Shown here one piece after another: positions 3,646 to 46,123 of a DNA stretch of 52,950 nt. The stretch is from positions 9,184 through 62,133 of the forward strand of contig JAKLGH010000007.1 in assembly GCA_022710775.1 (NCBI GenBank), given 5' to 3'. Source of the DNA: Patescibacteria group bacterium. GTDB taxonomy: Bacteria > Patescibacteriota > Minisyncoccia > Minisyncoccales > UBA5738. The translations under genes were made by a program, and so were the position numbers. Every line of letters starts with the position of its first letter. Position 1 is the first letter of the stretch. Under the pieces are notes generated by a model. The model did no database searches. It saw only the letters and a program-made list of their open reading frames with translations, and was not told where the DNA came from.

Positions 3646-4140
3646 TTGGTCCCAGGGTTTAAAAAAATGAAAAAAACAATACTAAGTTCGTTCGTTATTG
3701 TTTTGTTTTTTGCGGCTGCCGCTCAAGTTTCCGCCTCGGGATTGGTTCCTTGCGGAGGCCCCGAAGAAGCGCCTTGCGATCTTTGTTTTTTGTTCTCGTT
3801 GGTAAAGTCAGCCGTCGATTTTATTCTTCTTACGGTTATTCCGCCCGTTGCCGCCTTGATTATCATCTTGTCGGGAATTAACTTGATGGCCAACAAGAAC
3901 AGCCCGGAAACAATAAATAAAACGAAAAAGGTGTTGTATTCAACGTTTTTCGGACTCGCTATTATTTTTACGGGCTGGGTGGTAATAAACACGGCTTTAT
4001 CGGCAATGAAAATCGCTGTTTGGGAAGCCAATGAAGGAAAATGGTGGAAATTTTCCTTGGTATGCGCCGGCCACGGCGGAGAATACGAGGAAAAAGATCT
4101 TGAAGTGTGCGAGGGAATGGAAAATGAGCAAAATAAGTAA
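3646..4140 (+). CDS. Secreted pilin-like protein: signal peptide, two TM helices separated by a short Lys-containing loop, and a Cys-containing C-terminal tail. Paralogous to the 2-TM domains at 17470-17741 and 18700-18890.
   Basis: The 2-TM module ...SGINLMANKNSPETINKTKKVLYSTFFGLAIIFTGWVVINTAL aligns by eye with the C-terminus of ORF 15381-17741 and the N-terminal part of ORF 18566-19492. It resembles the T4SS (TrbC/VirB2-type) pilins of CPR and Gram-positive bacteria. Confidence 0.55.
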   Translation: MVPGFKKMKKTILSSFVIVLFFAAAAQVSASGLVPCGGPEEAPCDLCFLFSLVKSAVDFILLTVIPPVAALIIILSGINLMANKNSPETINKTKKVLYSTFFGLAIIFTGWVVINTALSAMKIAVWEANEGKWWKFSLVCAGHGGEYEEKDLEVCEGMENEQNK

Positions 4141-7692: not shown

Positions 7693-7885
7693 GTCCAAAT
7701 GGGCGATTATGCACTTTGAAAAGAAAAAATTAAGGTTTATGATAGAATAAACAACCTCGCTTTTGGGAGAATTGGTTGTTTATTGGTTCTCCGTATAATT
7801 GCGTACTAAAAAAACGCTATCGGAACCAATAATAGCGCAAAACCAAGCTTATGGCAGTTTTCTCAACAATTTATACGCTCCAACC

Positions 7886-11724: not shown

Positions 11725-13251
11725 ATGCCATCAAAAGTATTTTCGGCCGCAGTTATCGGACTGGACGCTCAAATCATCGAAGTTGAAGTGGACTCAACTT
11801 ACGGGTTAAGGCACTTTGAGATCGTCGGCTTGCCGGACAAATCGGTCCAGGAAGCCAAAGAGCGCGTCGCAACGGCAATCGACAGCGCGGGATTCCCGTC
11901 CCCGAACAACCAGCCTGTAAAAGTTTTGGTTTCTTTGGCTCCCGCCGATTTAAAAAAAGAAGGCGCTTTATATGACCTTCCAATAGCCCTCGGATATCTG
12001 CTGGCCGAAAAGATCATCAAATTCAACCCTTTGAGGAAAGTATTCATCGGAGAACTTGCCCTGGACGGAAAACTCCGGCCGGCAAAAGGCATAATATCCT
12101 TGGCTATTGCCTGTAAAGAAAAGGGGATTGAGGAGATCATTTTACCCAAGGAAAATGCCGCCGAAGGCGGTTTGATAAAAGGCGTTAAAATCATCGGCGT
12201 GGAAAGCTTAGACGAAACAATTGATTATTTAAATGGCAAAAAAATCATCGAACCGACAGTCACTGATACAAAAAATTACGTTTTTACCGGACATATCCCA
12301 GGAGACCTGGCTTTGATCTCCGGACAAGAATCGGCAAAAAGAGCCTTAGAAATCATTGCAGCGGGCGGACACAACCTGTTAATGTCGGGACCGCCGGGAA
12401 CCGGAAAAACTTTACTGGCTAAAGCTTTGCCTTCCATTATGCCGCCTTTATCATTCGAGGAATCATTGGAAGTCACTAAAGTTTACAGCGTTTGCGGCCT
12501 TCTGTCCGCAAATTCTCCTTTAATAACGCAACGGCCTTTCCGCGCCCCGCACCATACTTCATCGTGCGTCGCCCTGATCGGGGGAGGGAATCCGCCCAAG
12601 CCCGGAGAGATCACGCTGGCCCACCGGGGAGTTTTATTCCTTGATGAATTTCCGGAATTCCACCGCGACGTTCTGGAAGCGCTCCGCCAGCCGATCGAAG
12701 AGGGAAATATAAACTTATTGCGGGCGCGCCACGCTTTAACCCTTCCGGCCCGCTTTACCCTGATTTTAGCCGCCAATCCTTGTCCCTGCGGAAATTTCGG
12801 CAACCCCGACAAAAGGTGCGTCTGCGCCAGCTCCCAGATCAAAATGTACCAAAAAAAACTTTCCGGCCCGCTAATGGACCGGGTGGATCTTTTTATCACA
12901 GTGCCATCCGTTAAATACGAAAAGCTGGCGGCAACCGATAGCGACGCAAAAAGCAGCCAAGCCGCCCGGGAAAAAGTTCTGAAAGCGCGCCTCATACAGC
13001 AAATCCGTTTCAACAATTTTACCACTAACGCCGAAATGGGGATCGTTGAAATAAAAAAACACTGCCTTTTGGACGGCAGGTCGAAAACTTTGCTGAAAAA
13101 TTATGTGGATTCGGGCAAATTGTCGGCCCGGGGATACCACCGGGTTTTAAAAGTGGCGCGCACGATCGCCGACCTGGAAGGCGCAGAGAACATCCTATTT
13201 GACCATCTGGCCGAAGCCCTGATGTACCGACCCAAAGGCAGTATCGGCTAG
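11725..13251 (+). CDS. comM: YifB/ComM-family Mg-chelatase-like AAA+ ATPase
   Basis: N-terminal Lon-like domain, Walker A (MSGPPGTGKT), Walker B (LFLDEF), and the conserved C-terminal domain of the family. Confidence 0.85.
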   Translation: MPSKVFSAAVIGLDAQIIEVEVDSTYGLRHFEIVGLPDKSVQEAKERVATAIDSAGFPSPNNQPVKVLVSLAPADLKKEGALYDLPIALGYLLAEKIIKFNPLRKVFIGELALDGKLRPAKGIISLAIACKEKGIEEIILPKENAAEGGLIKGVKIIGVESLDETIDYLNGKKIIEPTVTDTKNYVFTGHIPGDLALISGQESAKRALEIIAAGGHNLLMSGPPGTGKTLLAKALPSIMPPLSFEESLEVTKVYSVCGLLSANSPLITQRPFRAPHHTSSCVALIGGGNPPKPGEITLAHRGVLFLDEFPEFHRDVLEALRQPIEEGNINLLRARHALTLPARFTLILAANPCPCGNFGNPDKRCVCASSQIKMYQKKLSGPLMDRVDLFITVPSVKYEKLAATDSDAKSSQAAREKVLKARLIQQIRFNNFTTNAEMGIVEIKKHCLLDGRSKTLLKNYVDSGKLSARGYHRVLKVARTIADLEGAENILFDHLAEALMYRPKGSIG

Positions 13252-14348
13252 CGTTTCGTGAATGGATTGACCGTGCCGATCACTTCGAAGTGCAGATGGC
13301 AGCCGGTGGACAATCCCGTATTGCCCATTAGGGCGATATTCTGTCCCTTGGAAACCGCCTGGCCCGATTTTACGAAGATCGTCTGTAAATGAAAATATTT
13401 AGTGACCGCTCCGCTCGGATGGAGAATGGTAATATAATTTCCCGCCCCCTTGTTCCAGCCATAAGCGACGCGCTGAACCGTGCCGGACGCAGACGCGTAA
13501 ATAGCATCGCCGCATTTACCGTTGGAAAGATCCACTGCGTTATTATAATGCAATCCTTGGGTCAAACGGCAAGGAAGGCTGATCGGGCACATGAAGTAAT
13601 CTCCCGGAAGGCTTAAGCCGCTTGTCAAACCCCCGTTAGGTTTAACCGTTGTGGCCGCGCCGGTTTTTGCCTTGGCAACGGCTTTCGGCATTTTTCCGCC
13701 GGGAATAATTAAAGTGTCTCCGATATAAACATCGGCTTCGTCTGAAAGTTTGTTAAAAGCCACCACATCGGCTGCTTTGGCTTGATATTTTTGCGCCACA
13801 ACCGATACCGTATCGCCGTTGGCTACGTTGTGGACAACGCCGGAAACCGGAAGAATAACCAAAATTTGGCCGGTTTTTATTTGCGCCGTCGCGGACAGAT
13901 CGTTGGCCCAAAGGATAGTGTCGGCGCTGATGCCAAACTTTTCCGCAACTCCCGCAACCGTATCTCCCTGTTCAACAATATATTCTATGATCGCTCTTTG
14001 GTCATCTTCCATTTTCAGGTTCTCTTGGTAATATTCATCTCCCCCGACCAGCGACCCGAGAACCTTGGTAGAAACCGTGATCGGGGGAGTGGAAGCCCTA
14101 ACGCAGGAGCTATCGATCAAAAGAAAATCCGGTGATTCAAGCCGGGTTTGTTTTAAGGCGTCAAGATAGGCATTTTGCGAGCTTTCGATACAAATTTGGC
14201 CATTTTCTTTGGTATTGGTAATCGTAGCCGAAAACGCCAAAGAAGCGCTAAACAAAACCGCTCCGACAAGGAGAAGTTTGGAAATATTTCTTAATTGGAC
14301 CTTAATAGACACGTATTCATTATATCGCGGCACAGGGCTAATTGTCAA
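13248..14348 (-). CDS. Secreted LysM-domain M23 metallopeptidase
   Basis: Signal peptide, two LysM-like repeats (GDTVAGVAEKFGISADTILWAN; GDTVSVVAQKYQAKAADVVAFN) and a C-terminal M23 motif (GNTGLSTGCHLHFEV). The true start may be the GTG at 14312, which gives a cleaner signal peptide. Confidence 0.75.
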   Translation of the reverse strand: MTISPVPRYNEYVSIKVQLRNISKLLLVGAVLFSASLAFSATITNTKENGQICIESSQNAYLDALKQTRLESPDFLLIDSSCVRASTPPITVSTKVLGSLVGGDEYYQENLKMEDDQRAIIEYIVEQGDTVAGVAEKFGISADTILWANDLSATAQIKTGQILVILPVSGVVHNVANGDTVSVVAQKYQAKAADVVAFNKLSDEADVYIGDTLIIPGGKMPKAVAKAKTGAATTVKPNGGLTSGLSLPGDYFMCPISLPCRLTQGLHYNNAVDLSNGKCGDAIYASASGTVQRVAYGWNKGAGNYITILHPSGAVTKYFHLQTIFVKSGQAVSKGQNIALMGNTGLSTGCHLHFEVIGTVNPFTKR

Positions 14349-15380: not shown

Positions 15381-17741
15381 ATGCCAATGTTCGATTTTTT
15401 TCATCGAAACTTCATGGTCTGCAATAAAAATTTTTTGCGTTCCCTTGGCTTGTTATTATTTTTGTTGCTGGTTTTTTCGGGAACCAACGTTCAAGCGGAA
15501 GATGATGATGACGAATGCAATCCCTGTTGCCATCACGTTTATTACACTTGCTCAAGCTCCTGCGGCGGCACCTTAAGGGACATACATCAAGACACTTGTT
15601 GCGGCGAATCATGCAACAGCCCCACGTATGATTGCGAGGACTGGCAAAAATGCGACCCGAGCGAAGCGGTCGGCGGAAAATGTTATTGCGACGGTTCCTG
15701 CCTGGAAAAACCCAAGGATCCGGTCTATTACAACAATCCGGAATATGTCCACCAGCCCCAGCACACCGTTGGAGACAAAGACGTCAAGTTGCCGGTAAAG
15801 CTTGAATGGACCGACGTACCCGGATGGAAAAACAAAGGCGGCCCGGGCGCCCATAAAAAAGATCCCTACGGCCCCCAATCCTACGTGATCGCCCTTAAAA
15901 ATACTGCCGTACTGCCGAACGCAGAAGAAGAATACACCAAAGTCCTGCCCGAATCGGAGTTCAATTCGGTATCAGACGGCCAGCCTTGCCTTTTAAAATC
16001 GGCAGCTGAAGTTCCCTGGAACGTAAAGGCCTGTTGCAATACCGACGGCACCAATTGCGGGCCCACGGCTTATTTTTCTTTTACAACCAGCTCGGCTCCC
16101 GAACCGAAGGCGCCTTACGATCCGGACTGGGTAGGGGATAAAGCCGCCGAGAACCTGGGTGTCCATACCGACGTAAACACCTTAAAACTCGAATGGTGCC
16201 CTTTAAGAGACGTGATGGCTTACCGCCTGCTGGCTTACACTGTAGATGGCAAAGAAGAAAAATGCATTCACGCCCTATCGCAAGGCAAAGATTGCAAACC
16301 CTACGATATTATGACGGCGAATGGGGCAGGAATACCTCCAACCTCGTTAAAAAACAGCGACACCGGTTTTTTTACCAAAGATTTTACTTATTCCTGGACC
16401 GTGCAAGGATGCAAAGGTTTGGATGGAATAAATTGCACCGACTGGAGCCAAAAATGGAAATTCAAATTAAATGATTTTGCTTTAGAACCCCCCAGCCTTT
16501 ACGCCCCTCCCGACGATCCGGAAGGCAAAACACCGGTCGGTCTGCCCGTTAAATTCGCTTGGGACGGCAAAGCCGGAAGCAACTCATACATCTTTGACTT
16601 AACCGGCGTAGCCTTAACGAACGAGGAAAAAAACCGCAAGATATCAACAGTAACGATAGACTATCCAAAGCTCCAACTTGACAAAATCTATACTTGGCGC
16701 GTCAAACCTTGCTGGGATTATGAATCAAAAGAATGCGAAGACGCCGCCTGGTCCAAAACTTTCACTTTCCGGACAACCGGCCGGCCTCCGATCCCGGAAT
16801 CAATGAAACCGGAAGGCAGCAATGTCGGATTGCCGGCTATCTTTACCTGGGAAAACGTCCCGGGCGCGAAATCGTTTGTTTTTCAAATAGAAGGCAATGG
16901 GATAAATTTAGAAAGAACCGTAATCGATCCTAAAGTGGCGGATATCGGCTCTCCCGACCTGAAACCCGAAAAAACCTATGTCTGGAAAGTTAAAACCTGC
17001 GCCCGCGAAGCGGGGGAATTATGCGGCGAATGGAGCGAAACGAAAAGCATCACAATTTCCGCCATCGGCGCGCCGACCAATCCCAATCCTCCCGACGGAT
17101 CAACCATCTATTCCGACGAACTGCCTAAAGACCTCACCTGGGACAAAGTTGACGGAGCCGGCGCTTACAGAACAACCATTACCTACACGGCGAAAGACGC
17201 GGACGAAACCAGTGAATGCCCGACCGGAACGTCAAAAGAACAGATAGTTTTGGGCCCAGCCCATCAAATCAGCTCTTCCTGCCTGGGAACTTACGTTTGG
17301 CAGGTCCAGTCGTGCCTTGATACCGAATGCAAGTTATTGGGCGGCACCGGTCCGGAATGGACGCTTAACATCAAACAAAACCCCGATAACGCGAAAACAA
17401 CGGGAGGCCTGGTTATTTGCGGCCGGAATTACGACAATCCAGACACCTCTTGGAACGAAAGAAACGCCTGCAACATCGGCCATATTTTTCTTATGCTCCA
17501 GGTGATCTTCGAATTCTTTCTTTTCCGGCTGTCGATCGTTATTCTGGTAATACTGGTGCTGATCACCGGCGTGATCTTTTACACATCGCTAGGCGACGCG
17601 GCCACGATCCAGCGGGTGAAAAGCCTCTGGCGGGCGGCAGGATTAGGCTATCTTATCGTGCTGTTTGGCTGGGTGGTCGTATCGGTTCTGCTTACGGTTC
17701 TGGGCTTCCAGTTCGGTTCGTGGTGGAAAATTAAAAACTGA
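15381..17741 (+). CDS. Large surface protein. It has a signal peptide, an N-terminal Cys-rich module, five ~100-aa Fn3/Ig-like repeats (recurrent L.W...PGA.SY.....YxWxVxxC...C.EWS motif), and a C-terminal 2-TM pilin-like domain.
   Basis: The repeats were aligned by eye. The C-terminal TGVIFYTSLGDAATIQRVKSLWRAAGLGYLIVLFGWVVVSVLL matches the 2-TM modules of ORFs 3646-4140 and 18566-19492. Confidence 0.6.
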   Translation: MPMFDFFHRNFMVCNKNFLRSLGLLLFLLLVFSGTNVQAEDDDDECNPCCHHVYYTCSSSCGGTLRDIHQDTCCGESCNSPTYDCEDWQKCDPSEAVGGKCYCDGSCLEKPKDPVYYNNPEYVHQPQHTVGDKDVKLPVKLEWTDVPGWKNKGGPGAHKKDPYGPQSYVIALKNTAVLPNAEEEYTKVLPESEFNSVSDGQPCLLKSAAEVPWNVKACCNTDGTNCGPTAYFSFTTSSAPEPKAPYDPDWVGDKAAENLGVHTDVNTLKLEWCPLRDVMAYRLLAYTVDGKEEKCIHALSQGKDCKPYDIMTANGAGIPPTSLKNSDTGFFTKDFTYSWTVQGCKGLDGINCTDWSQKWKFKLNDFALEPPSLYAPPDDPEGKTPVGLPVKFAWDGKAGSNSYIFDLTGVALTNEEKNRKISTVTIDYPKLQLDKIYTWRVKPCWDYESKECEDAAWSKTFTFRTTGRPPIPESMKPEGSNVGLPAIFTWENVPGAKSFVFQIEGNGINLERTVIDPKVADIGSPDLKPEKTYVWKVKTCAREAGELCGEWSETKSITISAIGAPTNPNPPDGSTIYSDELPKDLTWDKVDGAGAYRTTITYTAKDADETSECPTGTSKEQIVLGPAHQISSSCLGTYVWQVQSCLDTECKLLGGTGPEWTLNIKQNPDNAKTTGGLVICGRNYDNPDTSWNERNACNIGHIFLMLQVIFEFFLFRLSIVILVILVLITGVIFYTSLGDAATIQRVKSLWRAAGLGYLIVLFGWVVVSVLLTVLGFQFGSWWKIKN

Positions 17742-17750
17742 TAATTTCAA

Positions 17751-18545
17751 ATGAGGCCGGCAAGCTTATCCATCATAATAATCTTCGCGATGATCCCGAT
17801 CCTGGCCATTTTGGCATACGGCCAGTTTAAAACCGCTTTCAGTTCGGAATTCGACGCCGGCGCGCCGGAACCGATCCTAACCAAATTTGACCCTGGCCAA
17901 AGCCTGGAAGGGTTAAAAAAGGAAAAAAATCCGGAACGGCTGGAATTCCGCGATCCTGCCGGCAAGCTGAAAATCAGCTACGATTCTTCCTGGACCAAGG
18001 CCGAAGACGATATCATCAAAAAAGCCGATAACCTAGCCCAATTGGAAAACGAAGATCTGCTGCTGCTGCTTTACAAAGTGGATTTTAACAGCTTCCAGCC
18101 GTCTTATCTGGCTGTCGAGCGCGTCAAAAATGGGAATTGGAACGACATAGTGGCAACAATGGAACAGGAAGCAAAAGCTAAAAACCAGGCAATGGAAGTC
18201 TTAAGATCGGACATCTCAAAAAACCGGGTAAGCCTGGAAATAAAATTCGTTTCGGCGGCTGATGCAAAAAATAAGATCACGACCCGCCAGTGGGCTGAAA
18301 TACTGGTCGACGGGGATGAAAGCTATATCGTTTTGCTGATGACCACGGAACAAAACTGGCCGGCATTCGAAAAAGAAGCTGGCGAGATCGCCGGCTCCAT
18401 AGAGTTCCTCGGCCAACCCTTAACCCCGGCGGTAGAAGAACAGCCAAATATTGATAACGATCCAGCCGCTGGCAACGGCGACAGTTCCAGCGATGCCGGC
18501 GTCATTAAAGCCATCGGCATCCCGGCGCCCGAACAAAACAATTAA
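17751..18545 (+). CDS. Hypothetical secreted or membrane-anchored protein (N-terminal signal-anchor), located inside the pilin locus
   Basis: ORF track. N-terminal hydrophobic helix. No family recognised. Confidence 0.5.
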   Translation: MRPASLSIIIIFAMIPILAILAYGQFKTAFSSEFDAGAPEPILTKFDPGQSLEGLKKEKNPERLEFRDPAGKLKISYDSSWTKAEDDIIKKADNLAQLENEDLLLLLYKVDFNSFQPSYLAVERVKNGNWNDIVATMEQEAKAKNQAMEVLRSDISKNRVSLEIKFVSAADAKNKITTRQWAEILVDGDESYIVLLMTTEQNWPAFEKEAGEIAGSIEFLGQPLTPAVEEQPNIDNDPAAGNGDSSSDAGVIKAIGIPAPEQNN

Positions 18546-18565
18546 AATATCAACCCGGAAAAAAC

Positions 18566-19492
18566 ATGGCCAAACCAATCAACAAAAAATTATTTTCCTT
18601 GCTGGCGGTTGCCGGATGTTTCGCGTTTTTCGCGCTGGCCTACGCCCTGGAAACTTCCTGGCCGGAATCTCCGATGAAAACCAAGGTTGACGACACAACC
18701 AACCTGGCTGTTTTCATCAAATACATTTACGAGTGGGGGATAGCGCTGGGCGGCGTGGCAACCTTTATCGCTTTTGTGATCGCCGGGTTCCAATACATCA
18801 CTTCTATCGGCGATCCGCAAACCATGAAGGACGCCGTCGACCGCATCAAATCGGCGATGTTTGGCCTGGTGTTGCTGTTATCGGCTTACGTTCTGTTGAA
18901 TACCATCAATCCCGAATTGGTAAGCTTCCGCCTCGACCCTTTTAATCCCCAGCTTAACGGAGAATTTTTTGAGTCTTGCCAGGCAAACAGCGGCACTTGC
19001 AGACCAGGATACGAATGTAAATTACTTGGCGAAAAAGGCATCTGCTGGCCAAAAGATTATGCCGGCCCGGTCTGTAAAGATGCCGAAATCTATTCGCAAA
19101 CCAATTTCAAAGGGACTAAAACCGTCCTTAGCGTCAACGAAACCCTTGAAGGCGGAGACAACATGCCCAAATCGGTCAGAGCCCGATACATAGACGATGA
19201 TTGCAAAGAATACCTGAAAAAAAATAAAGACAAAGTGGACGGCAGAACCAGCTGTTATTGCGATGAACGGGTTGCTCCCAGCGGCGGGGAGGAAGAAGAT
19301 TCGACTACGATGGTCGGAGAGAAAAACGGCTGCGGCTGCGTGCTCCGGCTTTATAACGAAGATGACGGCTGGCTTTGGTCCGATTGCGGGGATGTGATCA
19401 CGGACGTGCCGGCCTACGAAGCCGATCTGACCCAATGGTTCGACCGGGACGTATATTGCGTGGAGCTTCTGTCGCCCGGAGCCGATAAGTAA
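18566..19492 (+). CDS. Pilin-like protein: signal peptide plus a 2-TM pilin-like domain, followed by a C-terminal Cys-rich extracellular domain
   Basis: AGFQYITSIGDPQTMKDAVDRIKSAMFGLVLLLSAYVLLNTI is paralogous to the other two pilin-like modules. The C-terminus contains about 14 Cys. Confidence 0.6.
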   Translation: MAKPINKKLFSLLAVAGCFAFFALAYALETSWPESPMKTKVDDTTNLAVFIKYIYEWGIALGGVATFIAFVIAGFQYITSIGDPQTMKDAVDRIKSAMFGLVLLLSAYVLLNTINPELVSFRLDPFNPQLNGEFFESCQANSGTCRPGYECKLLGEKGICWPKDYAGPVCKDAEIYSQTNFKGTKTVLSVNETLEGGDNMPKSVRARYIDDDCKEYLKKNKDKVDGRTSCYCDERVAPSGGEEEDSTTMVGEKNGCGCVLRLYNEDDGWLWSDCGDVITDVPAYEADLTQWFDRDVYCVELLSPGADK

Positions 19493-19519
19493 ACCTGCGG
19501 CCGGAGCTAAACCAAAACT

Positions 19520-22294
19520 ATGGATAAAATTCCCAAAAAACCCAAATCGTTCCAAAGAGCCGTCATGGCTCTGGTTTCGGCTCTTACTATATTTACTTTA
19601 GTTATACCCGCATCTGCTGACGCCATCCTGCTCGACGATATTACCGGCATTTTCGAGAACGCTCTGGAAGCAAGCGACGAAGTAACATCGCCCCTTCTTT
19701 CCGTAGTTCCCAAGGTTGTCGTATATTATTCCCTTAGTCTGGTCTGTCTGGGTTTTTCAACCAGCACTTTAGAGTGGGTGATCAAAAACCCAAATTGGAT
19801 CAATCTTAGGGGAAAAGCGGTCACCAAGGGCTGGGCTCTGACCAGGGGAATGGCCAATATGTTCCTTTTGCTGATCTTTTTGGTCATCGCTTTCGGTTTC
19901 ATTTTAAGGCTCGAGTCGGTTGACGCGCCAAAGGCCCTGCCGCGGCTGATCATCGTCGCCCTTTTGATCAACTTCAGCAAGCTGTTTGTCGGCATGCTCG
20001 TTGATTTCGCGACAATCGCCAACAATACCATCATCTATGGCCACGAAGACTTGTTGAGAACGGTTGTAGATGGACTCGCTGGTTCTATATACGCTACTTT
20101 TGGCGTTATGCTTACGGGAGTGGTTAAATCCATCCTGGCCTATGCTGTTCCGCTGGCCGGTTTGCCTAAAGTTCTTATTACGGCCAGCTCCCTGCTTTTT
20201 AAAGGAGAATTTATCTCCCTTATGCCGATATGGGTAAGCCAGATCGTCGCCGCGTCGGCCCTGACGATGATTTTCTGCCTTTATATCATTTTGTTTGTCG
20301 CGCGCGTTTTTATTATCCAGATCTTGGCAATTTTGTCGCCCCTGGCCTTCCTGTGCCTTATTCTGCCGCAAACCCAAAAATACTGGGACGAGTGGCTTAA
20401 GCATCTCATCCAATGGACCTTTGTGGGAACAGTTTTGCTTTTCTTTTTAATGATCGGCTTAAGCGCCGGCAACGCGCTTTTGCCCAGCGCTAGCGATCCG
20501 GACCCGTTCACTTGGGGTAATTTGTTTCCCGTTCTCAACGTCCCCAAGTTTTTCATTTATTACATGTTTTTGTTCATTTATCTGGCGGTATCGTTCTGGA
20601 TGGTTGACCGCACCATGCCCATACTTGCCGTATCGATCATGGGCATGTCGCAAGGCCTGGCTTCCAAAGCCTGGAAAATGGGCGGCAAACAAGCCAAAGA
20701 TGACCTGTTCCAGCGCATAAACGAAAAAGCTGTGGCGCATCAAAAGCGGGACAAGGATTCTAGAGATGATAGCGGCAACCTTACGCTGGCCGGCAATGAC
20801 CGATTGATCCACCAGGCAAAAAGCTTTGCTTTTGCGCCAGTTCATGGTTTTCACCGCCTGAAACGAACCACGCCCAAACAGGCAGTCATCAAAGGCCAGA
20901 TGGCGGCTCGTGAACGGATGGAAAAGCTTTACGGAAAAGATGACGACGGCGTAGACCGGTTCATGGAAGCAATGGATGCCAATCCCAAGCTTCTCGGACA
21001 AATGGGCGCCACCGAACGGGTCGGCGCGCTTGAATACGGTTTAAAATATAAAGGTACTGAATTTGTTCAAAGCTTGCGCAAAAAAGGGGTACTCCATGAC
21101 ACCTTGCAACAAGCCGCCCCTTACAGCATGAGTAATGTTATCAAGGCGGTCGGATATGATCCGGCCAGTTTACAAGGCGCTAAAGGCCAAGCAATCGCCA
21201 GAACGATCGTAAAGGAAGATTCAAAAGGCAAAGAGAATCGTCATTTAGCCGAATACATCCATGGCAATATCGGCGACGCGGCACTCAACCAGAAAGCTGC
21301 CCTTTATACGGGCGCGGCAAAAATTATGGAGAAAAAAGATACCAGCGACAATTGGGATAGGGGCGTTTTCAAGATCAATCCCACCGATACGCCAGAAGAT
21401 CAACAAGCCACTCGCGATCTTCAGGAGGGTATTGCCTTTAAGGCAAGTAGCGGCCAGATCAGGAATATCGGCGATAAGCATGGCCAGGACGTTTTGGACG
21501 CAATTCAGGGGGAAATTGTTGAAAAGGATTATGGAAAATTCGCCGTTGCCAATCCTAAACTGGCCAACGCTCAAGCTATTAATTCCGGAACCGCGGAAGT
21601 TTTTCCGGCGCCTGACGATATCGCTTACATAACCGATCCGCAAACCGGCTTGGCTAAAAAACGGAAAAAAGAGCAGATGCAAGAAAGGATCCAAGGCGTC
21701 ATTAATGAAGAAAGGAACCGGCGGCCGGGACGTGGCCAACAAGCAGGCCAAAGAGCGCAGGGCGGCCGGCAACGCACCACCGGCCCTGGCCAGCAGCATT
21801 GGGGCAACCAGGGAGACGATACGGGCGATCAAGGCAATACGCCTCCTCCCGGCGGAGGGCCGGGACCGGGTACGCCGCCGCCTCCCGGAGGGCCGGGACC
21901 GGGCGGAGGAGCCGGAGGCGCAGGCGGTAGCAGGCGAGCCGGACAACGGACCGGCGCCGGCCCGGAATCGGGATTTGGCGGCGCGACGCGCAGGCAACAG
22001 GCCAGCCAAAGGCCGGGACAAGAAAACTTTGGCGATTTTGGCCGCAGCCGCCCGGGATCAGGCCGTAATCAGGACGCGCGCGACCAAGCCAACCAGACTA
22101 CATACCGCGAGCAAGAAGAAGAAAGGCAAGAAACCGAGCGTGCCGCGCAAGAAGCCGGGCGGCGCTATCCCAACGACGATCTGCGCGATCGCGACCGGCG
22201 GGACAGGGACGGCGGAACCACGCCCAGCGGCCGCACAACCGGCGTTTACCCGGACGACGTTAGTCGGCGCGGCGGAATCAACGGAAATCCTTAA
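19520..22294 (+). CDS. VirB6/TrbL-like polytopic membrane protein (signal peptide plus about 8 TM helices) with a roughly 330-aa low-complexity Gly/Pro/Arg/Gln/Asp-rich C-terminal tail
   Basis: TM-helix topology and size resemble VirB6/TrbL family proteins. The tail contains an imperfect tandem repeat at 21843-21910 (PPPGGGPGPGTPPPPGGPGPGGG). Confidence 0.55.
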   Translation: MDKIPKKPKSFQRAVMALVSALTIFTLVIPASADAILLDDITGIFENALEASDEVTSPLLSVVPKVVVYYSLSLVCLGFSTSTLEWVIKNPNWINLRGKAVTKGWALTRGMANMFLLLIFLVIAFGFILRLESVDAPKALPRLIIVALLINFSKLFVGMLVDFATIANNTIIYGHEDLLRTVVDGLAGSIYATFGVMLTGVVKSILAYAVPLAGLPKVLITASSLLFKGEFISLMPIWVSQIVAASALTMIFCLYIILFVARVFIIQILAILSPLAFLCLILPQTQKYWDEWLKHLIQWTFVGTVLLFFLMIGLSAGNALLPSASDPDPFTWGNLFPVLNVPKFFIYYMFLFIYLAVSFWMVDRTMPILAVSIMGMSQGLASKAWKMGGKQAKDDLFQRINEKAVAHQKRDKDSRDDSGNLTLAGNDRLIHQAKSFAFAPVHGFHRLKRTTPKQAVIKGQMAARERMEKLYGKDDDGVDRFMEAMDANPKLLGQMGATERVGALEYGLKYKGTEFVQSLRKKGVLHDTLQQAAPYSMSNVIKAVGYDPASLQGAKGQAIARTIVKEDSKGKENRHLAEYIHGNIGDAALNQKAALYTGAAKIMEKKDTSDNWDRGVFKINPTDTPEDQQATRDLQEGIAFKASSGQIRNIGDKHGQDVLDAIQGEIVEKDYGKFAVANPKLANAQAINSGTAEVFPAPDDIAYITDPQTGLAKKRKKEQMQERIQGVINEERNRRPGRGQQAGQRAQGGRQRTTGPGQQHWGNQGDDTGDQGNTPPPGGGPGPGTPPPPGGPGPGGGAGGAGGSRRAGQRTGAGPESGFGGATRRQQASQRPGQENFGDFGRSRPGSGRNQDARDQANQTTYREQEEERQETERAAQEAGRRYPNDDLRDRDRRDRDGGTTPSGRTTGVYPDDVSRRGGINGNP

Positions 22295-22320
22295 TTTCGT
22301 TTTCCATCAATATTTTAAAA

Positions 22321-22345
22321 GGCTTCGTTAAACGCGAAGCCTTTT
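22321..22345 (+). terminator. Terminator hairpin for ORF 19520-22294 (GGCTTCG-ttaaacg-CGAAGCC followed by TTTT)
   Basis: Read directly. Confidence 0.6.
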
Positions 22346-22377
22346 AGAAAAATAAAATAGGGATCTTGATATCCCTA
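22345..22377 (-). terminator. Terminator hairpin for the minus-strand SPFH gene (TAGGGAT-cttgat-ATCCCTA, T-rich on the minus strand). It overlaps the stop codon.
   Basis: Read directly. Confidence 0.5.
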
Positions 22378-23589
22378 TTCTTCCTCTTTATTTGATTTTC
22401 CTTTTTGTTGTGGCTGCCCTCCTTGCCTGGCCTGCATACCCCGCGACAATAAATGAAGCGGGGTAGTAAGACCCAACGGATCCTTGCCTTCGAGGCCAGA
22501 AACCTCTATTTGTTCCTGGTGCACATCTTTCTTGATAAGCTTGCGGAATAACAACCAGGTTTCCGTAGCTTTCTCCGGGTTCAGGCCGATTCTATCCCGC
22601 AACTCAATGATTGAATCGCGGAAATGCTCCCGCTCGGTCTTCTCGGACCTCTGCTCCAGTTCTTCTTTTGCCAGATCATCCCTGGCTTTCTGGATATAAT
22701 CCGGCAAGCCGATATCCGGTACCGTAATTTGCAGAATCTCGATACCGACAAGCCGAAGAACAAGGTGCCTGGAACCGTTATTAAAAGAACTGATCATTTC
22801 CGATTTCAAGGCTTCGTCTTCGACGTTGACAATCGTGCTGATGATCGCTTCGCGAAAACCCTTTTTATCTTTTAAGGCCTTTTCCATCTTTTTTGTAATG
22901 GCGTATTCACGAATCCCTTGATTAGTTGGATCGCTAATAATGTCTTCCACGCCTGCCGCTTGCCCGACATCCAGATAGCGAATGACGGAAAACGGATTCT
23001 TGTAATCAGGGTGCCAGGTCATGGAAGCTAAAACCCCGATTGTCCCATTCTTAACAGCAACTCTCACTTGGGACAAATCAGTGTTTTTATCCATCACATC
23101 GATCCGGATCACATCCCAAATAAAGGGGATCACCAGGCAGTATCCCTCTTGAACAAGATAAGGAATCCTGCCTCCCATCCAGGTACGAATGCCGATCTGT
23201 TTCGGCGTTGCCTGCACTTCCTTAATAAATAAAATTGCAAGCAAGCCGCTGGCCGCGAAACAACATAGAGCTTGGGTAAAATTTACCCAAACCCCGCCGG
23301 CCAGATAATAAAGGCCCAAAGCTAAGGGTAAGACCAGCAACAATCCGGCGAGCACATTCATGCGATGCTCAAGACTAGCCGCAGCAGCCATCTCTGTTTG
23401 CTGTTCTTCTGTATATTCAGAGCGCCCACTTGCTGTGGGTGCCGGCGTTTCTACCGCTGGTTCCGGTTCAGGCCTTGGTAGCCCATGTTCCGAACCTTCT
23501 GCCGGATTTTGATCTGTTCCGGCATTGCGCCCCGGCGTATCATCTTCGGAAGGTAGTACCGGGCCGTGCATTGGCCCAAAATTATCCAT
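22375..23589 (-). CDS. SPFH/band-7 (stomatin/prohibitin-like) membrane protein with a disordered N-terminal extension
   Basis: Two N-terminal hydrophobic helices are followed by a region with the flavour of an SPFH core (IRTWMGGRIPYLVQEGYCLVIPFIWDVIRIDVMDKNTDLSQVRVAVKNGTIGVLASMTWHP) and a coiled-coil C-terminus. Confidence 0.55.
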   Translation of the reverse strand: MDNFGPMHGPVLPSEDDTPGRNAGTDQNPAEGSEHGLPRPEPEPAVETPAPTASGRSEYTEEQQTEMAAAASLEHRMNVLAGLLLVLPLALGLYYLAGGVWVNFTQALCCFAASGLLAILFIKEVQATPKQIGIRTWMGGRIPYLVQEGYCLVIPFIWDVIRIDVMDKNTDLSQVRVAVKNGTIGVLASMTWHPDYKNPFSVIRYLDVGQAAGVEDIISDPTNQGIREYAITKKMEKALKDKKGFREAIISTIVNVEDEALKSEMISSFNNGSRHLVLRLVGIEILQITVPDIGLPDYIQKARDDLAKEELEQRSEKTEREHFRDSIIELRDRIGLNPEKATETWLLFRKLIKKDVHQEQIEVSGLEGKDPLGLTTPLHLLSRGMQARQGGQPQQKGKSNKEEE

Positions 23590-23669
23590 AGCTATTCACC
23601 TCTTCTTTTTGGTATTCATCAAGCTATACTTCAATCCATATGTGAAATATGACAAGGATCTGTTTTTAA

Positions 23670-23698
23670 ATTATAGCATACTTTACTATTTTTGTCAA
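23670..23698 (-). promoter_or_regulatory. Sigma70-like promoter for the SPFH gene: TTGACA, 17 nt, TATAAT on the minus strand
   Basis: The reverse complement of 23670-23698 reads TTGACAaaaatagtaaagtatgcTATAAT. A GAGGTG RBS lies ahead of the ATG at 23589. Confidence 0.6.
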
Positions 23699-23760
23699 TG
23701 AAAATTACAGCCGCCAGGCGGCTGCTTTTTGCCAATATATGCCAGCGCAAATCAATAACG

Positions 23761-23788
23761 TTGCCCCCGATTTTCCCCATGTTATAAT
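23761..23788 (+). promoter_or_regulatory. Sigma70-like promoter with extended -10 (TTGCCC, 16 nt, TGtTATAAT) for ORF 23867-24262
   Basis: Read directly. Confidence 0.5.
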
Positions 23789-23866
23789 ATATGAATGGTC
23801 AATGATCGCTCAGGCGGGTTTTTGGATTAATCCAAGCCTCGAATAAGCATCAATGATGCATAAAAT

Positions 23867-24262
23867 ATGCCTGAAAAAATCTCCAAACAAAAGTTTTGGG
23901 AGCTGTACCGTAAGCTTCCGACCGAACTTCAAGACGCGCTTTTCGACGACGATTTATGGAACAACGTTGCCGAAATTTGCAGCCGCTACCAAGCGAATGA
24001 TAGCCATGACCTGATATCGGACGGATTGTTCAATGTTTTGCTGGGCATCCTCCCTCCCAATATTTTCATCGACGGGCTGGCAAACGAGCTAAAAACCGAT
24101 AAAGCCACAACGAGCCGGATCATCCATGAGATCAACCGATTTGTCTTATTCCCCGTAAAAGAAGCCCTGGAGGATATTTATAATCTTCAAATGACCCCGC
24201 TTGCCGGAGCTCCTTCGCCCAACGCCACAAAAAGAAGCGCCTACCAGGAGCCGATAGGGTAG
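23867..24262 (+). CDS. Hypothetical soluble protein of 131 aa, first gene of the PrgI/VirB4 sub-cluster
   Basis: ORF track. No motifs recognised. Confidence 0.5.
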   Translation: MPEKISKQKFWELYRKLPTELQDALFDDDLWNNVAEICSRYQANDSHDLISDGLFNVLLGILPPNIFIDGLANELKTDKATTSRIIHEINRFVLFPVKEALEDIYNLQMTPLAGAPSPNATKRSAYQEPIG

Positions 24263-24372
24263 CTTTGGATGTCTGAGAACAAGCGGCTTTTATTTTTTCG
24301 TTTTGCGCGTTAATGAATTAGGGCATTTAAAAAGGTTCGACTGCTTTTCAAAGAGTTATATCCCGGTATCTT

Positions 24373-24810
24373 ATGAATTTCATCCTACCCCAATTCATCG
24401 ATATGGAAACCAAGGTGATCGGACCGCTCACTTTGAAGCAATTCATATACCTCGGGATCGGGGGCGGAGCGTCGCTCTTCCTTTACATGATGTCAACCTC
24501 CAATCCGGAGGGGTTTCCTTTAATAGCCTGCCTGGCTATAGTGATACTCATTATGCTGGTTTCGTTCGCCCTCGCCTTCGTTAAGGTGAACGGGATAACT
24601 CTGCCGGTACTGATAAAACATTCCTTCCTTTTTAACCTGGCGCCCAAAATTTATCTTTGGAAAAAATTCCCTAACGCCAAAATCGTCAACCCAAACCAGG
24701 GAGTGATTAAAATAGTAAAAGGACCGGCAAGCAAAAAAGCCGACCGGGTCACTACAAAAAAAAGCGAACTGAAAAAATTAAGGAACTTTATGGAAACGAA
24801 AGGCAATTGA
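24373..24810 (+). CDS. PrgI/VirB3-like small membrane protein of a Gram-positive-type T4SS
   Basis: A 145-aa protein with an N-terminal motif (IPQFIDMETKVIGPLTLKQFIYL) and two TM helices, lying immediately upstream of VirB4. This is the typical PrgI-PrgJ arrangement. Confidence 0.6.
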   Translation: MNFILPQFIDMETKVIGPLTLKQFIYLGIGGGASLFLYMMSTSNPEGFPLIACLAIVILIMLVSFALAFVKVNGITLPVLIKHSFLFNLAPKIYLWKKFPNAKIVNPNQGVIKIVKGPASKKADRVTTKKSELKKLRNFMETKGN

Positions 24811-24832
24811 AGCCTTAAGCCCAACGCACCAC

Positions 24833-25459
24833 ATGGCATTCACATCAACCCAACAATTCCTAGAGATCGACCAGATAAAAGAAGGCGTTATCGTCTTAAA
24901 AAACAAGGCTCTGCGCGGCCTCCTGATGGTTTCTTCGATCAATTTCGCTTTAAAAGCGGAAGACGAGCAAACCGCCATTATTTACCAATTCCAGAGTTTT
25001 CTCAATTCGCTGGATTTTTCGCTGGAAATTTTTATCCAAAGCCGGCAGCTGAATATCACGAATTACCTGGATAAGTTAAAAGACCTGGAAATAAGGCAAA
25101 CCAACGACCTTTTAAGGATCCAAACCGCCGAATACCGAAAGTTCATCAATGAGCTGATATCGTCGGGTTCGATCATGAATAAAACCTTTTACGTGGTCAT
25201 CCCTTTCACTTTGATGAATCTGCCTAACCTCCCGAAATCAAAAGAAGCGGCCAGGTCCGCCAGCGAGGAACAATTCCAGCGCGCCAAATCCCAGTTATGG
25301 CAGCGGATGGAATTCGTGGCGCTCGGCCTCCGGCGCTGCGGCCTTCAATGCGTTCCGTTGAACAGCCTGGAACTGGTTGAATTCTTTTGGAGCCTGTACC
25401 ATCCGCAGGAATCGGAAAGCGGTTATTATCCTGAAATCCCGCCGGAGCTGATAACTTGA
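24833..25459 (+). CDS. virB4: VirB4/TraC-family ATPase, N-terminal fragment (208 aa)
   Basis: ...IDQIKEGVIVLKNKALRGLLMVSSINFALKAEDEQTAIIYQFQSFLNSLDFSLEIFIQSRQLN resembles the extreme N-terminus of Gram-positive VirB4 (PrgJ/ConE-like) proteins. It terminates at a TGA at 25457-25459. Confidence 0.55.
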   Translation: MAFTSTQQFLEIDQIKEGVIVLKNKALRGLLMVSSINFALKAEDEQTAIIYQFQSFLNSLDFSLEIFIQSRQLNITNYLDKLKDLEIRQTNDLLRIQTAEYRKFINELISSGSIMNKTFYVVIPFTLMNLPNLPKSKEAARSASEEQFQRAKSQLWQRMEFVALGLRRCGLQCVPLNSLELVEFFWSLYHPQESESGYYPEIPPELIT

Positions 25460-25487
25460 TCCGCTCCGTTATCCAACGTTAAATTCT

Positions 25488-27278
25488 ATGGGTCTTTTCT
25501 CTTCCAAAAAAAAGCAAAAAAAACAGGATTTAGGCCAAAGCCTCGAGATCAACACGATCAATATCAAGGATATCATCGCGCCTTCTTCGATCGCTTTGTC
25601 CAGCGAATATCTTAAGCTGGGGGAAAAATTCGGAAAATCCTTCTTTATTTTTTCTTATCCGCGCTATTTGACGACGGGGTGGTTTGCGCCGATCATCAAT
25701 CTGGAAAGCCCGATGGATATTTCTTTCCATATCCATCCGATCGAGACAGGAACAACGTTGAAACAGCTGCGGAAAAAGCTCACTGAAGTGCAAGCCGAGC
25801 TGATGGAAAGGGAAGAAAAGGGGTTGGTGCGCGATCCCGCGCTGGAAATCGCTTACCAGGACCTTGAATCCCTCCGCGACAAGCTCCAAACCTCCCAAGA
25901 GCGCATGTTCAAGCTTGGAATATACCTTACGGTTTATGAAAATTCCTTGGAAAAATTGAAATCCGTTGAAACGACCCTCCGGTCGATACTTGAATCGAAA
26001 TTAATATATATCAAGCCGTCTCTTTACCAGCAAAAGGAGGGATTCACTTCAACCTGCCCTTACGGTTTAGACGAGATCAATGCGCATACTCCGATGAATA
26101 CCGGACCGCTTTCTTCAACTTTCCCCTTCATCTCCTTTGATTTAAGCGCCAACGACGGCATCCTCTACGGCGTGAACCTCCACAATAATTCTTTGATCCT
26201 GTTTGACCGGTTCAGCCTTGAAAACGCCAACAGCGTGATCTTCGCCAAATCCGGCGCCGGTAAGAGTTACGCCATCAAGCTGGAAGTCCTGCGCTCCATG
26301 ATGATGGGAGTTGAATCGATCATCGTCGATCCGGAAAACGAATACCGGGCCCTCGCGGAAGCGGCCGGAGGTTCATTCATCAACATCTCCCTTACGTCGC
26401 CAAACCATATCAATCCGTTCGATTTGCCGATCCCGCGAGACGACGAGGATCCGGAAAACGTGTTGCGCAGCAATATTATCAACCTGGTTGGCCTTGTCCG
26501 GATCATTTTAGGGGGCTTGTCGCCCGAGGAAGACGCGATCATCGACCGGGCCCTCACGGAAGTTTACGCCGCCAAAGACATCACGCCGGAAACCGACCCC
26601 AGCCTCTGGAAAGAAAGAACGCCGTTGATGCAAGATCTGGAAGCCGTGCTTGAAGGCATGGAAGGAACGGAATCGCTTGTAAGGAGAATCAGAAAATTCA
26701 CCAAGGGAACGTACGCGCAATTTTTCAACCAGCCAAGCAATATCTCAATGGATAAGCTGATGGTGGTTTTCGGCATCCGCGACATGGAGAACGAGTTGCG
26801 TACGGCAGCAATGTTTATTATTATGCGCCATATCTGGAACAAAGTAAGGATGACTTTGAAAAAAAGAATCTTGGTGGTCGACGAGGCTTGGTGGCTTATG
26901 CAAACCGAAGATGGAGCGTCTTTCCTGTACGGTCTTTGCAAAAGGGCCAGAAAATACTGGCTTGGCGTTACCACCATCACGCAAGACGTTGGCGATTTCA
27001 TGAAATCAACTTATGGCCAGCCGATTATTACCAACTCATCGATACAGTTTTTAATGAAGCAATCTCCGGCAACGATCGATATCCTCCAAAAAACTTTTAA
27101 CCTTACCGAAGGAGAAAAAAATCTTTTGCTCGAAGCCGAAGTGGGGGAGGGGCTTTTCTTTGCCGGCCAGAAACACGTTGCCATAAAAGGAATCGCTTCC
27201 TACGTGGAAGATCAAATCATCACCACCAGCCCCGAAGAGATCCAAAAGATCAAAAAGGCAAAAAGCGGCAACGAATGA
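25488..27278 (+). CDS. virB4: VirB4/TraC-family ATPase, main fragment (596 aa)
   Basis: Walker A FAKSGAGKSYAI and Walker B ILVVDEAWW, plus the VirB4 N-domain motif KFGKSFFIFSYPRYLTTGWFAPIIN. It is in a different reading frame from the upstream fragment. The two frames overlap over only about 5 nt around 25455. Confidence 0.85.
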   Translation: MGLFSSKKKQKKQDLGQSLEINTINIKDIIAPSSIALSSEYLKLGEKFGKSFFIFSYPRYLTTGWFAPIINLESPMDISFHIHPIETGTTLKQLRKKLTEVQAELMEREEKGLVRDPALEIAYQDLESLRDKLQTSQERMFKLGIYLTVYENSLEKLKSVETTLRSILESKLIYIKPSLYQQKEGFTSTCPYGLDEINAHTPMNTGPLSSTFPFISFDLSANDGILYGVNLHNNSLILFDRFSLENANSVIFAKSGAGKSYAIKLEVLRSMMMGVESIIVDPENEYRALAEAAGGSFINISLTSPNHINPFDLPIPRDDEDPENVLRSNIINLVGLVRIILGGLSPEEDAIIDRALTEVYAAKDITPETDPSLWKERTPLMQDLEAVLEGMEGTESLVRRIRKFTKGTYAQFFNQPSNISMDKLMVVFGIRDMENELRTAAMFIIMRHIWNKVRMTLKKRILVVDEAWWLMQTEDGASFLYGLCKRARKYWLGVTTITQDVGDFMKSTYGQPIITNSSIQFLMKQSPATIDILQKTFNLTEGEKNLLLEAEVGEGLFFAGQKHVAIKGIASYVEDQIITTSPEEIQKIKKAKSGNE

Positions 27279-45573: not shown

Positions 45574-45694
45574 GCGCCGGTTTGCTCCGAGATCAAAGAG
45601 GTGTTCCTTATTTATTGTAAATTTCGGAAAAAAATTCTAAAATAGCCTTATACCCGCGGGTATGGAGCGCGGCTGTGCAAGCATATAAACGTTT

Positions 45695-46066
45695 ATGGCA
45701 AAAAAAATCCTGCTAGTTGAAGATGAAGACCTGATCATAAAATTATTGCAAAAGAAGCTGGTCAGCGAAGGATACGATGTAACGATAGCCAGCGACGGGG
45801 AAGAGGGAATGAAAGCTCTCAGGCAAAACAAGCCGGAACTCGTTTTGCTTGATATTGTTATGCCGAAAAAAGGCGGATTCGAAGTTCTAGAAGAGATCAA
45901 TCAGGATGCCGATCTTAGAAATATCCCTGTGATTATAATATCCAATTCCGGGCAGCCGATGGAGCTGGACCGCGCCCAAAGGCTGGGAGTTAAGGACTGG
46001 CTTATTAAAACGGAATTTGACCCCAAGGAGGTGCTGGAAAAAGTTATTAAACAGATCGGAAAATAA
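45695..46066 (+). CDS. Single-domain response regulator (REC only, CheY-like)
   Basis: LLVEDED…D(58)IVMP…K motif pattern. 123 aa. Confidence 0.8.
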   Translation: MAKKILLVEDEDLIIKLLQKKLVSEGYDVTIASDGEEGMKALRQNKPELVLLDIVMPKKGGFEVLEEINQDADLRNIPVIIISNSGQPMELDRAQRLGVKDWLIKTEFDPKEVLEKVIKQIGK

Positions 46067-46123
46067 AATTATTTGTAAAAATAAGAACGGCCCCAAAAGG
46101 CCTGTGTAAATTAATTTAATCAT

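Follow-up and report, generated by a model that had tools for sequence, protein, structure and literature searches.

A chromosomal Patescibacteria-type type IV secretion locus next to the replication origin, with two of its three VirB2-like pilins fused to large cysteine-rich domains

Type IV secretion systems (T4SSs) encoded in the chromosomes of the ultrasmall Patescibacteria were described in 2023-2025, and a locus of this kind lies between positions 15381 and 27278 of the DNA analyzed here (the window), a 53-kb chromosomal, origin-proximal segment of contig JAKLGH010000007.1 from a Patescibacteria group bacterium of the Paceibacteria/Nealsonbacteria type. According to a survey of the phylum (Quinonero-Coronel et al. 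2025, Microb Genom, PMC12102498), these systems have VirB4 proteins of a clade sister to MPF-FATA, PrgI/VirB3, VirB6, from 2 to 11 divergent VirB2-like pilins in arrays, and TrsD, which in Patescibacteria is more abundant than any other protein associated with the T4SS; relaxases are rare, and in Paceibacteria the locus is found near dnaA, dnaN, rnpA, ksgA and rpmH. A 2025 FEMS review counts them as new members of the T4SS superfamily (PMC12857230). In Southlakia epibionticum, a T4SS cluster with a pilin array (SEML1_0006-0019) was essential for epibiotic growth by transposon sequencing, and its authors pointed out that a coupling protein and a relaxase are missing (Wang et al. 2023, Cell, PMC10633639), and comEC was dispensable in the same organism (PMC10633639; PMC12857230). 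The import of DNA or other macromolecules and the delivery of effectors have been speculated as roles, import being the one favored by the authors (PMC12102498, PMC11665869).

The locus is a typical copy of this already published chromosomal Patescibacteria T4SS, notable mainly because two of its three pilins are fusions. As in the described systems, a VirB4 ATPase with an adjacent TrsD is accompanied by PrgI/VirB3, VirB6 and several divergent VirB2-like pilins, there is no relaxase or type IV coupling protein (T4CP) nearby, and the genes are chromosomal and placed next to dnaA, dnaN, rnpA and ksgA. Unlike them, the window has its pilins upstream of VirB6 instead of downstream of virB4, and two of its three pilin modules are fused to large Cys-rich passenger domains. 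A first reading of the window (hereafter, the original prediction) had proposed a minimal VirB3/VirB4/VirB6 plus pilin set of the type known from the candidate phyla radiation; this is supported and agrees with PMC12102498 and PMC10633639, and every open reading frame (ORF) that it listed was found in place. Taken together, the locus is probably a derivative of the monoderm MPF-FATA systems (pCF10/CTn2-like) devoid of DNA-processing parts, which would build a surface structure for exchange with the host. For the comparisons below, more than 531 VirB4 relatives were detected in a scan with one genome per species, and the best 80 of them were used, all from metagenome-assembled genomes of Patescibacteria and with 57-96% identity to the VirB4 of the window.

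The VirB4 ATPase (596 aa; 25488..27278, plus strand), predicted as such, matched PDB 4ag5 with an E-value of 6.4e-45 and the NCBIfam CD1110-type VirB4 model along positions 179-734, with 376 bits versus a cutoff of 325 bits, and its Walker A (AKSGAGKS, residues 253-260) and Walker B (ILVVDE, residues 461-466) motifs are intact and invariant in 80 homologues. The protein is devoid of the extreme N-terminal segment, which is supplied by the preceding ORF, a soluble TrsD-like protein of 208 aa (24833..25459, plus strand) encoded between PrgI and VirB4. This ORF matched positions 2-171 (of 752) of the CD1110-type model (E = 3.1e-8), positions 104-233 of the Mbov_0397 model for the VirB3-VirB4 fusion of mycoplasma integrative and conjugative elements (ICEs; E = 7.6e-10) and TrsD (E = 1.4e-4), its precomputed Pfam call being PF26593 (TraC-like); a sequence search of it against the PDB returned nothing. 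In turn, the VirB4 profile of the lineage aligned to residues 221-773 of PrgJ from pCF10 (E = 3.6e-58), in such a way that PrgJ residues 1-220 were left uncovered. The contiguous and non-overlapping coverage of the CD1110-type model, along with the uncovered segment of PrgJ, supports that the two ORFs reconstitute a full-length monoderm VirB4 of the PrgJ/CD1110 type, with the 208-aa ORF corresponding to its first ~175 residues. Since the TrsD-like gene adjoins virB4 in 80 of the 83 loci compared, the split of VirB4 is conserved. The 208-aa ORF is the TrsD component reported for the Patescibacteria T4SS. That it could be a duplicate of an N-domain retained in VirB4 was rejected, as hhalign comparisons with the N-terminal 235 residues and with the C-terminal part of VirB4 gave probabilities of <1%. 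The original prediction had omitted this ORF, so its statement that no other channel components were recognizable was inaccurate; nor do the pilin genes outnumber those of the machinery, as it had claimed, with three pilins versus PrgI, the TrsD-like protein, VirB4, VirB6 and possibly a soluble protein, hyp23867, described below.

The PrgI/VirB3-like small membrane protein (145 aa; 24373..24810, plus strand) scored over the Pfam PrgI cutoff (E = 1e-9, 39.3 bits versus 27 bits), in agreement with its predicted identity, and also weakly matched the NCBIfam model of the mycoplasma VirB3-VirB4 fusion in its VirB3-like N-terminus. Its gene is located directly upstream of the TrsD-like gene in 71 of the 83 loci. 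The remaining machinery protein is an extended VirB6-like polytopic membrane protein of 924 aa (19520..22294, plus strand). Its residues 1-370 contain about nine hydrophobic segments, residues 371-720 form a soluble region and residues 721-924 a low-complexity tail rich in Gly, Arg, Gln and Pro. With respect to its predicted VirB6/TrbL-like identity, its own Pfam TrbL score was under the cutoff (E = 8.5e-4); however, TrbL was matched by 8 of 49 family members (best E-value of 1.2e-5) with no other family recurring, the top PDB match of the family profile was R388 TrwI/VirB6 (E = 3e-4, the next one being 0.14), and the gene holds a conserved position in 50-56 loci. Identification of this protein as VirB6-like is thus modestly supported, and it is the weakest assignment of the locus.

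The position of the locus is also conserved. Upstream of it the window encodes a CCA-adding enzyme, rpsO, an NYN-domain protein, PNPase, a DksA-type zinc finger, comM, a LysM-M23 peptidase and ksgA, and downstream of it jag, yidC, rnpA, dnaA, dnaN, a class A penicillin-binding protein, tyrS, ruvC and others, with dnaA 2.6 kb downstream of virB4. In the related loci the order is comM, the M23 gene (minus strand), ksgA, a pilin fusion where present, VirB6, the SPFH gene where present (minus strand), hyp23867, PrgI, TrsD-like and VirB4, followed where present by 1-4 pilin-module genes, and then by jag, yidC and rnpA (the three on the minus strand), dnaA and dnaN. Conservation of the neighborhood was among the checks suggested in the original prediction, and the gene order was kept across 80 related Paceibacteria genomes. 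Finding the same flanking backbone and gene order in 80 species-level genomes supports a chromosomal system that is inherited vertically and is not a mobile element. The locus is thus a vertically inherited chromosomal feature adjoining the replication origin, something that the original prediction did not recognize.

This conservation bears on the possibility that the locus remains from, or still is a working part of, an integrated conjugative element with its relaxase and its coupling protein outside the window. Homology of VirB4, the TrsD-like protein and PrgI to conjugation proteins of MPF-FATA systems fits such an element, as does the slightly higher GC content between positions 16000 and 22000 (0.50-0.52 versus 0.40-0.47 in the flanks). 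Nevertheless, we consider it extremely improbable, given that the same position, from ksgA to jag-yidC-rnpA-dnaA, is occupied in dozens of species-level genomes, where a conserved chromosomal backbone flanks both sides as opposed to plasmid or ICE sequences, and that the window ORFs revealed no integrase, relaxase, T4CP or repeat boundary. The raised GC content overlaps with the Gly/Pro/Arg-rich tail of VirB6 and the Cys/Gly-rich passenger domains, and probably reflects composition more than any recent transfer. In addition, the survey reports relaxases in just 103 Patescibacteria genomes, and rarely near virB4 (PMC12102498).

Pfam scans of the ORFs within these 53 kb, to which all the absences of components refer, revealed no relaxase, coupling protein, VirB8, VirB11, SLT-type VirB1 or integrase, which upholds the predicted lack of a VirD4 coupling protein, a relaxase and VirB8. 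A VirB8-like (NTF2-fold) bitopic protein such as PrgL was not found in the window either. The membrane-anchored or secreted protein of 264 aa encoded between the two pilin fusions (17751..18545, plus strand) was considered as a cryptic VirB8 and rejected, its fold being PsbP/DcrB-like; a PsbP/Mog1/DcrB-like alpha/beta domain spans its residues 61-220 and its tail is acidic, and the protein is restricted to the lineage and is not a canonical T4SS part. When compared with the monoderm MPF-FATA conjugative systems (pCF10 prgD-pcfC, CTn2 CD1110 and pGO1 trs), the locus shares a CD1110-family VirB4, a homologue of PrgI and, with pGO1, a TrsD-like protein, whereas it is devoid of relaxase, T4CP (PcfC), PrgK-type hydrolase, PrgL/VirB8-like protein and PrgB adhesin, its VirB4 is split, its VirB6 is extended and it is not on a mobile element. 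Lineage profiles of the pilin, VirB6, PrgI and TrsD-like families found nothing significant among the pCF10 proteins, the match between VirB4 and PrgJ being the sole exception.

Regarding a hydrolase of the VirB1/PrgK type, none is encoded inside the operon; a LysM plus M23 peptidase (13248..14348, minus strand; Pfam Peptidase_M23 3.6e-24 and LysM 9.7e-18) is located two genes upstream on the opposite strand, with ksgA in between, and relatives fuse hydrolase domains to pilin modules. The LysM-M23 gene is syntenic in 23 related loci, and VirB1-type hits with M23/LysM domains, as well as VirB1 homologues associated with virB4 in Paceibacteria, are reported in the survey (PMC12102498). This peptidase is only a possible cell-wall-remodeling partner with a VirB1-like role, and may equally be unrelated backbone.

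Conjugation is unlikely, as the original prediction held, and its preference for DNA uptake or cell-cell attachment is a reasonable speculation, which the literature already contains. A specific form of uptake would be a machine importing DNA from the host or the environment as a source of nucleotides for a cell unable to make them, like ComB of Helicobacter pylori, which is also a T4SS-derived VirB2/3/4/6-like set without relaxase or coupling protein. The presence of comM three genes upstream of the locus, syntenic in 15 related loci, and the preference of the authors of PMC12102498 and PMC11665869 for import point in the same direction. The locus differs from ComB, which has a diderm core (ComB7-10), in the adhesin-like passengers of its pilins. 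We find this role unlikely: nothing in the locus of the window binds or processes DNA, and import alone does not explain passengers of the adhesin and hydrolase types; besides, the comM-M23-ksgA segment may be mere conserved backbone. In Southlakia, transformation is abolished by deletion of comEC, which the cells survive, whereas they need the T4SS; the essential role of the latter is thus other than classical transformation.

Two of the three pilins depart from the small, hairpin-only form of VirB2. The 786-aa fusion (15381..17741, plus strand) has its VirB2-like two-transmembrane (two-TM) module at the C-terminus (residues 705-768, nt 17493-17684), preceded by a signal peptide and a Cys-rich extracellular region of ~650 aa with 33 Cys and at least two clear Ig/FN3-like repeats, which are visible by motif inspection only, self-BLAST having found none; weak matches to Ig_Rha78A_N and to the FN3-like purple-acid-phosphatase-N family were also detected in this protein. 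In the 308-aa fusion (18566..19492, plus strand), the module is N-terminal (residues 45-119, nt 18698-18922), after a signal peptide, and is followed by a Cys-rich C-terminal extracellular domain of 185 aa with 12 Cys and no assigned fold. No relative of the passenger domains of these two proteins was found in a sequence search against the PDB. The third protein, a stand-alone VirB2-like pilin of 164 aa (3646..4140, plus strand) encoded 11 kb upstream of the main locus, is the only one with the small hairpin-only form: a signal peptide, a GLVPCG motif, the two-TM hairpin (module residues 57-116, nt 3814-3993) and a short Cys-containing tail.

With respect to Pfam, the 308-aa protein matched T4SS_pilin (PF18895) with an E-value of 5.8e-9 and 36.3 bits, over the 26.6-bit cutoff, the 164-aa pilin matched T4SS_pilin (3e-4) and TrbC (4.5e-4), both under cutoff, and the 786-aa protein had no pilin match. 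The 308-aa protein was thus recognized by Pfam itself, and the other two only via a lineage profile of 75 positions, seeded solely from the module at 18566 and iterated over the ORFs of 80 related loci (121 modules). When every window ORF of at least 40 aa was searched with this profile, exactly three ORFs were returned even at E<=10, namely those at 18566 (the seed), 15381 (E = 1.4e-10) and 3646 (E = 1.1e-9). These data confirm the three paralogous modules that had been predicted, including that at 3646-4140, and no further ones exist in the window. All three have a signal peptide that looks cleavable and a two-TM hairpin whose short loop is basic (consensus TS-GDP-T), and in both the 786-aa and the 164-aa protein the hairpin is preceded by a GLVxCG motif and followed by GxWWK; in the three-way alignment of the modules, identity to the first sequence is 19-23%. 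Homologues of the 18566 module are present in 70 of the 83 loci.

Two observations concern pilins of other systems. The 308-aa protein showed a weak NCBIfam match to Mbov_0395, a pilin-like conjugal transfer protein of mycoplasma ICEs (E = 2.1e-5), and PrgF of pCF10 (L084 19545-19772), also a small two-TM hairpin, has a loop (DDPRT) resembling that of the pilin (GDPQT), a similarity that is not significant (E = 0.19 in a 14-protein search). The weak Mbov_0395 match and the loop resemblance hint at a VirB2-like protein already present in monoderm MPF-FATA systems, a point relevant to whether the pilin of Patescibacteria was co-opted from diderms.

Fusion of the module to large proteins is common in the related clade, where pilin-module proteins have a median of 523 aa and a maximum of 2095 aa (121 modules in 80 loci). 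In 78 of the 121 the module is N-terminal with a large C-terminal domain, in 29 it is internal and in eight C-terminal, as in the 786-aa protein. Most relatives have the modules after virB4 (105 of 121), the remaining 16, in the sub-lineage of the window, preceding VirB6, and nearly all of them directly adjoin the machinery genes on the same strand. A Pfam survey of 60 pilin-module proteins detected VanY (three), NlpC/P60 (three), M23 (two), SLT (two), SLT_2 (one), Amidase_2 (one) and 3D (one) domains, and also Ig-like, InlB B-repeat, SpaA-like and lamin-tail domains. Single ORFs of related Paceibacteria combine a pilin module with SLT, SLT_2, Amidase_2, VanY or M23 hydrolase domains, and NlpC/P60 was found in others. 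Examples are L077:12848-14686 (module 300-368, SLT_2 412-547), L065:5080-6876 (module 290-356, Amidase_2 434-585) and L081:11768-13609 (module 357-430, VanY 499-613); L020:12324-13952 and L027:12208-13137 have C-terminal M23 domains, and L078:14484-16295 is another of these single-ORF fusions. The available parts of PMC12102498 and PMC10633639 contain no description of large passenger domains, cell-wall hydrolases included, on pilin modules. The chromosomal and vertically inherited vir system of Rickettsiales also has divergent VirB2 paralogues and a VirB6 with a large hydrophilic extension; unlike the window, it is a diderm P-type system with VirB8-11 and VirD4, and its pilins are not fused to large domains.

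In the VirB2 topology both termini are outside the cell, so domains fused at either end would be extracellular, and all the Cys-rich regions of the window fusions are on the predicted outer side. These data suggest, without showing it, that what the machine exposes to the host are adhesins and wall-cutting enzymes. On the other hand, having in mind that most modules of the clade belong to large proteins and that the pilin gene at 3646 is 11 kb away from the machinery, the VirB2-like modules could be mere membrane anchors, with VirB4-VirB3-VirB6 acting apart from them, e.g., in the translocation of other proteins. This role is distinctly unlikely, since the pilin-module genes are tightly linked to virB4 across the 80 loci, the array of Southlakia is essential along with the machinery, and the sequence of the module is conserved while the passengers vary, which suggests that the module itself is recognized. 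A tentative and in our opinion doubtful extension of the secretion-system interpretation is that the VirB2-like hairpin of Paceibacteria could be a portable module, recognized by VirB4-VirB3-VirB6 to mount diverse passengers on the surface or on a filament, with hyp23867 as a cytoplasmic adaptor replacing the coupling protein. The passengers may be Ig/FN3-type adhesins in the window, and SLT, amidase, VanY, NlpC/P60 and M23 hydrolases in the relatives.

The protein hyp23867 (131 aa; 23867..24262, plus strand) is a conserved soluble protein without a family name, for which no sequence match was found in Pfam, NCBIfam or the PDB. AlphaFold2 confidently predicted a six-helix bundle (residues 7-105) with a disordered tail, the input alignments being shallow, as a word-indexed homologue search gave 10 and 6 close relatives. 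Its C-terminus carries an xY(R/H/Q)E motif (AYQEPIG here), which homologues keep as D-x-Y-R/H/Q-E-x-I. In 44 of 64 loci, a protein with this type of tail is encoded upstream of virB4, no more than 3.5 kb away; all the loci together have 46 such proteins, of which 44 are at this position. An exhaustive search yielded 970 cluster representatives (E<=1e-3), and the helical domain is present twice in some relatives. Identity with the PrgF reported near virB4 was rejected, PrgF of pCF10 being a 75-aa two-TM hairpin, and the profile of hyp23867 matched none of 14 pCF10 proteins (prgC-pcfC). We infer that hyp23867 is a candidate cytoplasmic accessory protein or adaptor of the T4SS.

Between VirB6 and hyp23867, an SPFH/Band-7 membrane protein (404 aa, two TM segments) is encoded on the minus strand (22375..23589), confirmed by Pfam Band_7 (1.2e-12). 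The original prediction took this gene as a mere interruption of the locus; instead, a minus-strand SPFH gene recurs at this position, within 5 kb upstream of virB4, in 22 of the 55 related loci with enough upstream sequence, the copy of one relative being Band_7. The protein possibly scaffolds the membrane complex. In the parts of PMC12102498 and PMC10633639 at our disposal there is no mention of a hyp23867-type protein or of an opposite-strand SPFH gene. A perfect sigma-70-like -35/-10 match precedes the SPFH gene at 23698-23670, and bidirectional hairpins flank it at 22354-22381 and 23707-23725. Consensus promoter and terminator matches, which are no more than suggestive, fit two plus-strand units, 15381-22294 and 23867-27278, with a monocistronic, convergent/divergent SPFH gene in between.

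By analogy with R388 and F, hexamers of VirB4 that dock to VirB3 and VirB6 would extract pilins from the membrane and feed them to a growing filament. In the locus of the window, VirB4, its N-domain completed in trans by the TrsD-like piece, would be held at the membrane by PrgI and by this piece on the VirB6 platform, and would use ATP to produce a pilus-like or stalk-like structure. Hyp23867 would act as a cytoplasmic accessory protein and the SPFH protein as a scaffold of the membrane complex. The passenger domains would ride on the pilin modules to the surface, where the Cys-rich ones could bind the host cell and those of the relatives could cut its wall, in such a way that the structure would serve contact-dependent exchange with the host and not conjugation.

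Several points weigh against this explanation. We know of no experiment on, and no pilus seen for, any Paceibacteria T4SS. If every subunit carried a large passenger, a canonical VirB2 helical filament could hardly accommodate them, so the fusions may represent minor subunits or those of the tip, or be no more than proteins anchored in the membrane. The support for VirB6 is modest, with E-values from about 1e-3 to 1e-5, and the TrsD-like family has no hhalign similarity to the VirB4 N-terminus of the lineage, a result that is expected for complementary pieces and gives no positive support. Finally, our scans covered 53 kb, and a T4CP or relaxase may lie elsewhere in the genome; according to the survey (PMC12102498), VirD4-like genes are located far from virB4 in many Patescibacteria.

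Other genes of the window were also inspected. As predicted, a GspE/PilB-type ATPase is encoded at 38502-39830; it is on the minus strand and belongs to a separate type IV pilus or type II secretion system-like function. At 1.8 kb from it there are two adjacent ORFs of ~410 aa without Pfam match (41625-42848 and 42852-44102, plus strand), which precede a histidine kinase and two single-domain response regulators (44140-46492) and may be linked to type IV pili. Upstream of the locus, a protein of 1078 aa without Pfam match (7799-11035, plus strand), with phmmer homologues in just two related loci, shows a Pro-rich N-terminus, a long Glu/Lys-rich stretch that by eye resembles a coiled coil, a single TM segment around residue 850, the acidic repeat DDSTGDDDND and, at the C-terminus, a domain of ~170 aa. 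Directly downstream of virB4, relatives encode three conserved families that are absent from the window and have no Pfam match: a 143-aa multi-TM family in 27 loci (e.g., L036:2974-3405), a 331-aa secreted-protein family in 22 loci (e.g., L067:11798-12793) and a 436-aa secreted or anchored family in 20 loci (e.g., L082:14339-15661).

Before the Patescibacteria T4SS, no T4SS had been shown to be essential to its own bacterium, and the window is a clean example of the Patescibacteria system in Paceibacteria. If the portable-module idea were true, the module would constitute a weapon or grappling device, a "VirB1-VirB2 fusion", that attaches to the wall of a host bacterium and opens it, and the C-terminal xY(R/H/Q)E peptide of hyp23867 would serve the adaptor role. 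The locus provides three leads, namely the pilin fusions with surface domains, the unnamed soluble family tied to virB4 and the recurrent SPFH partner, which point to what the host would encounter on the machine and to candidate interacting proteins.

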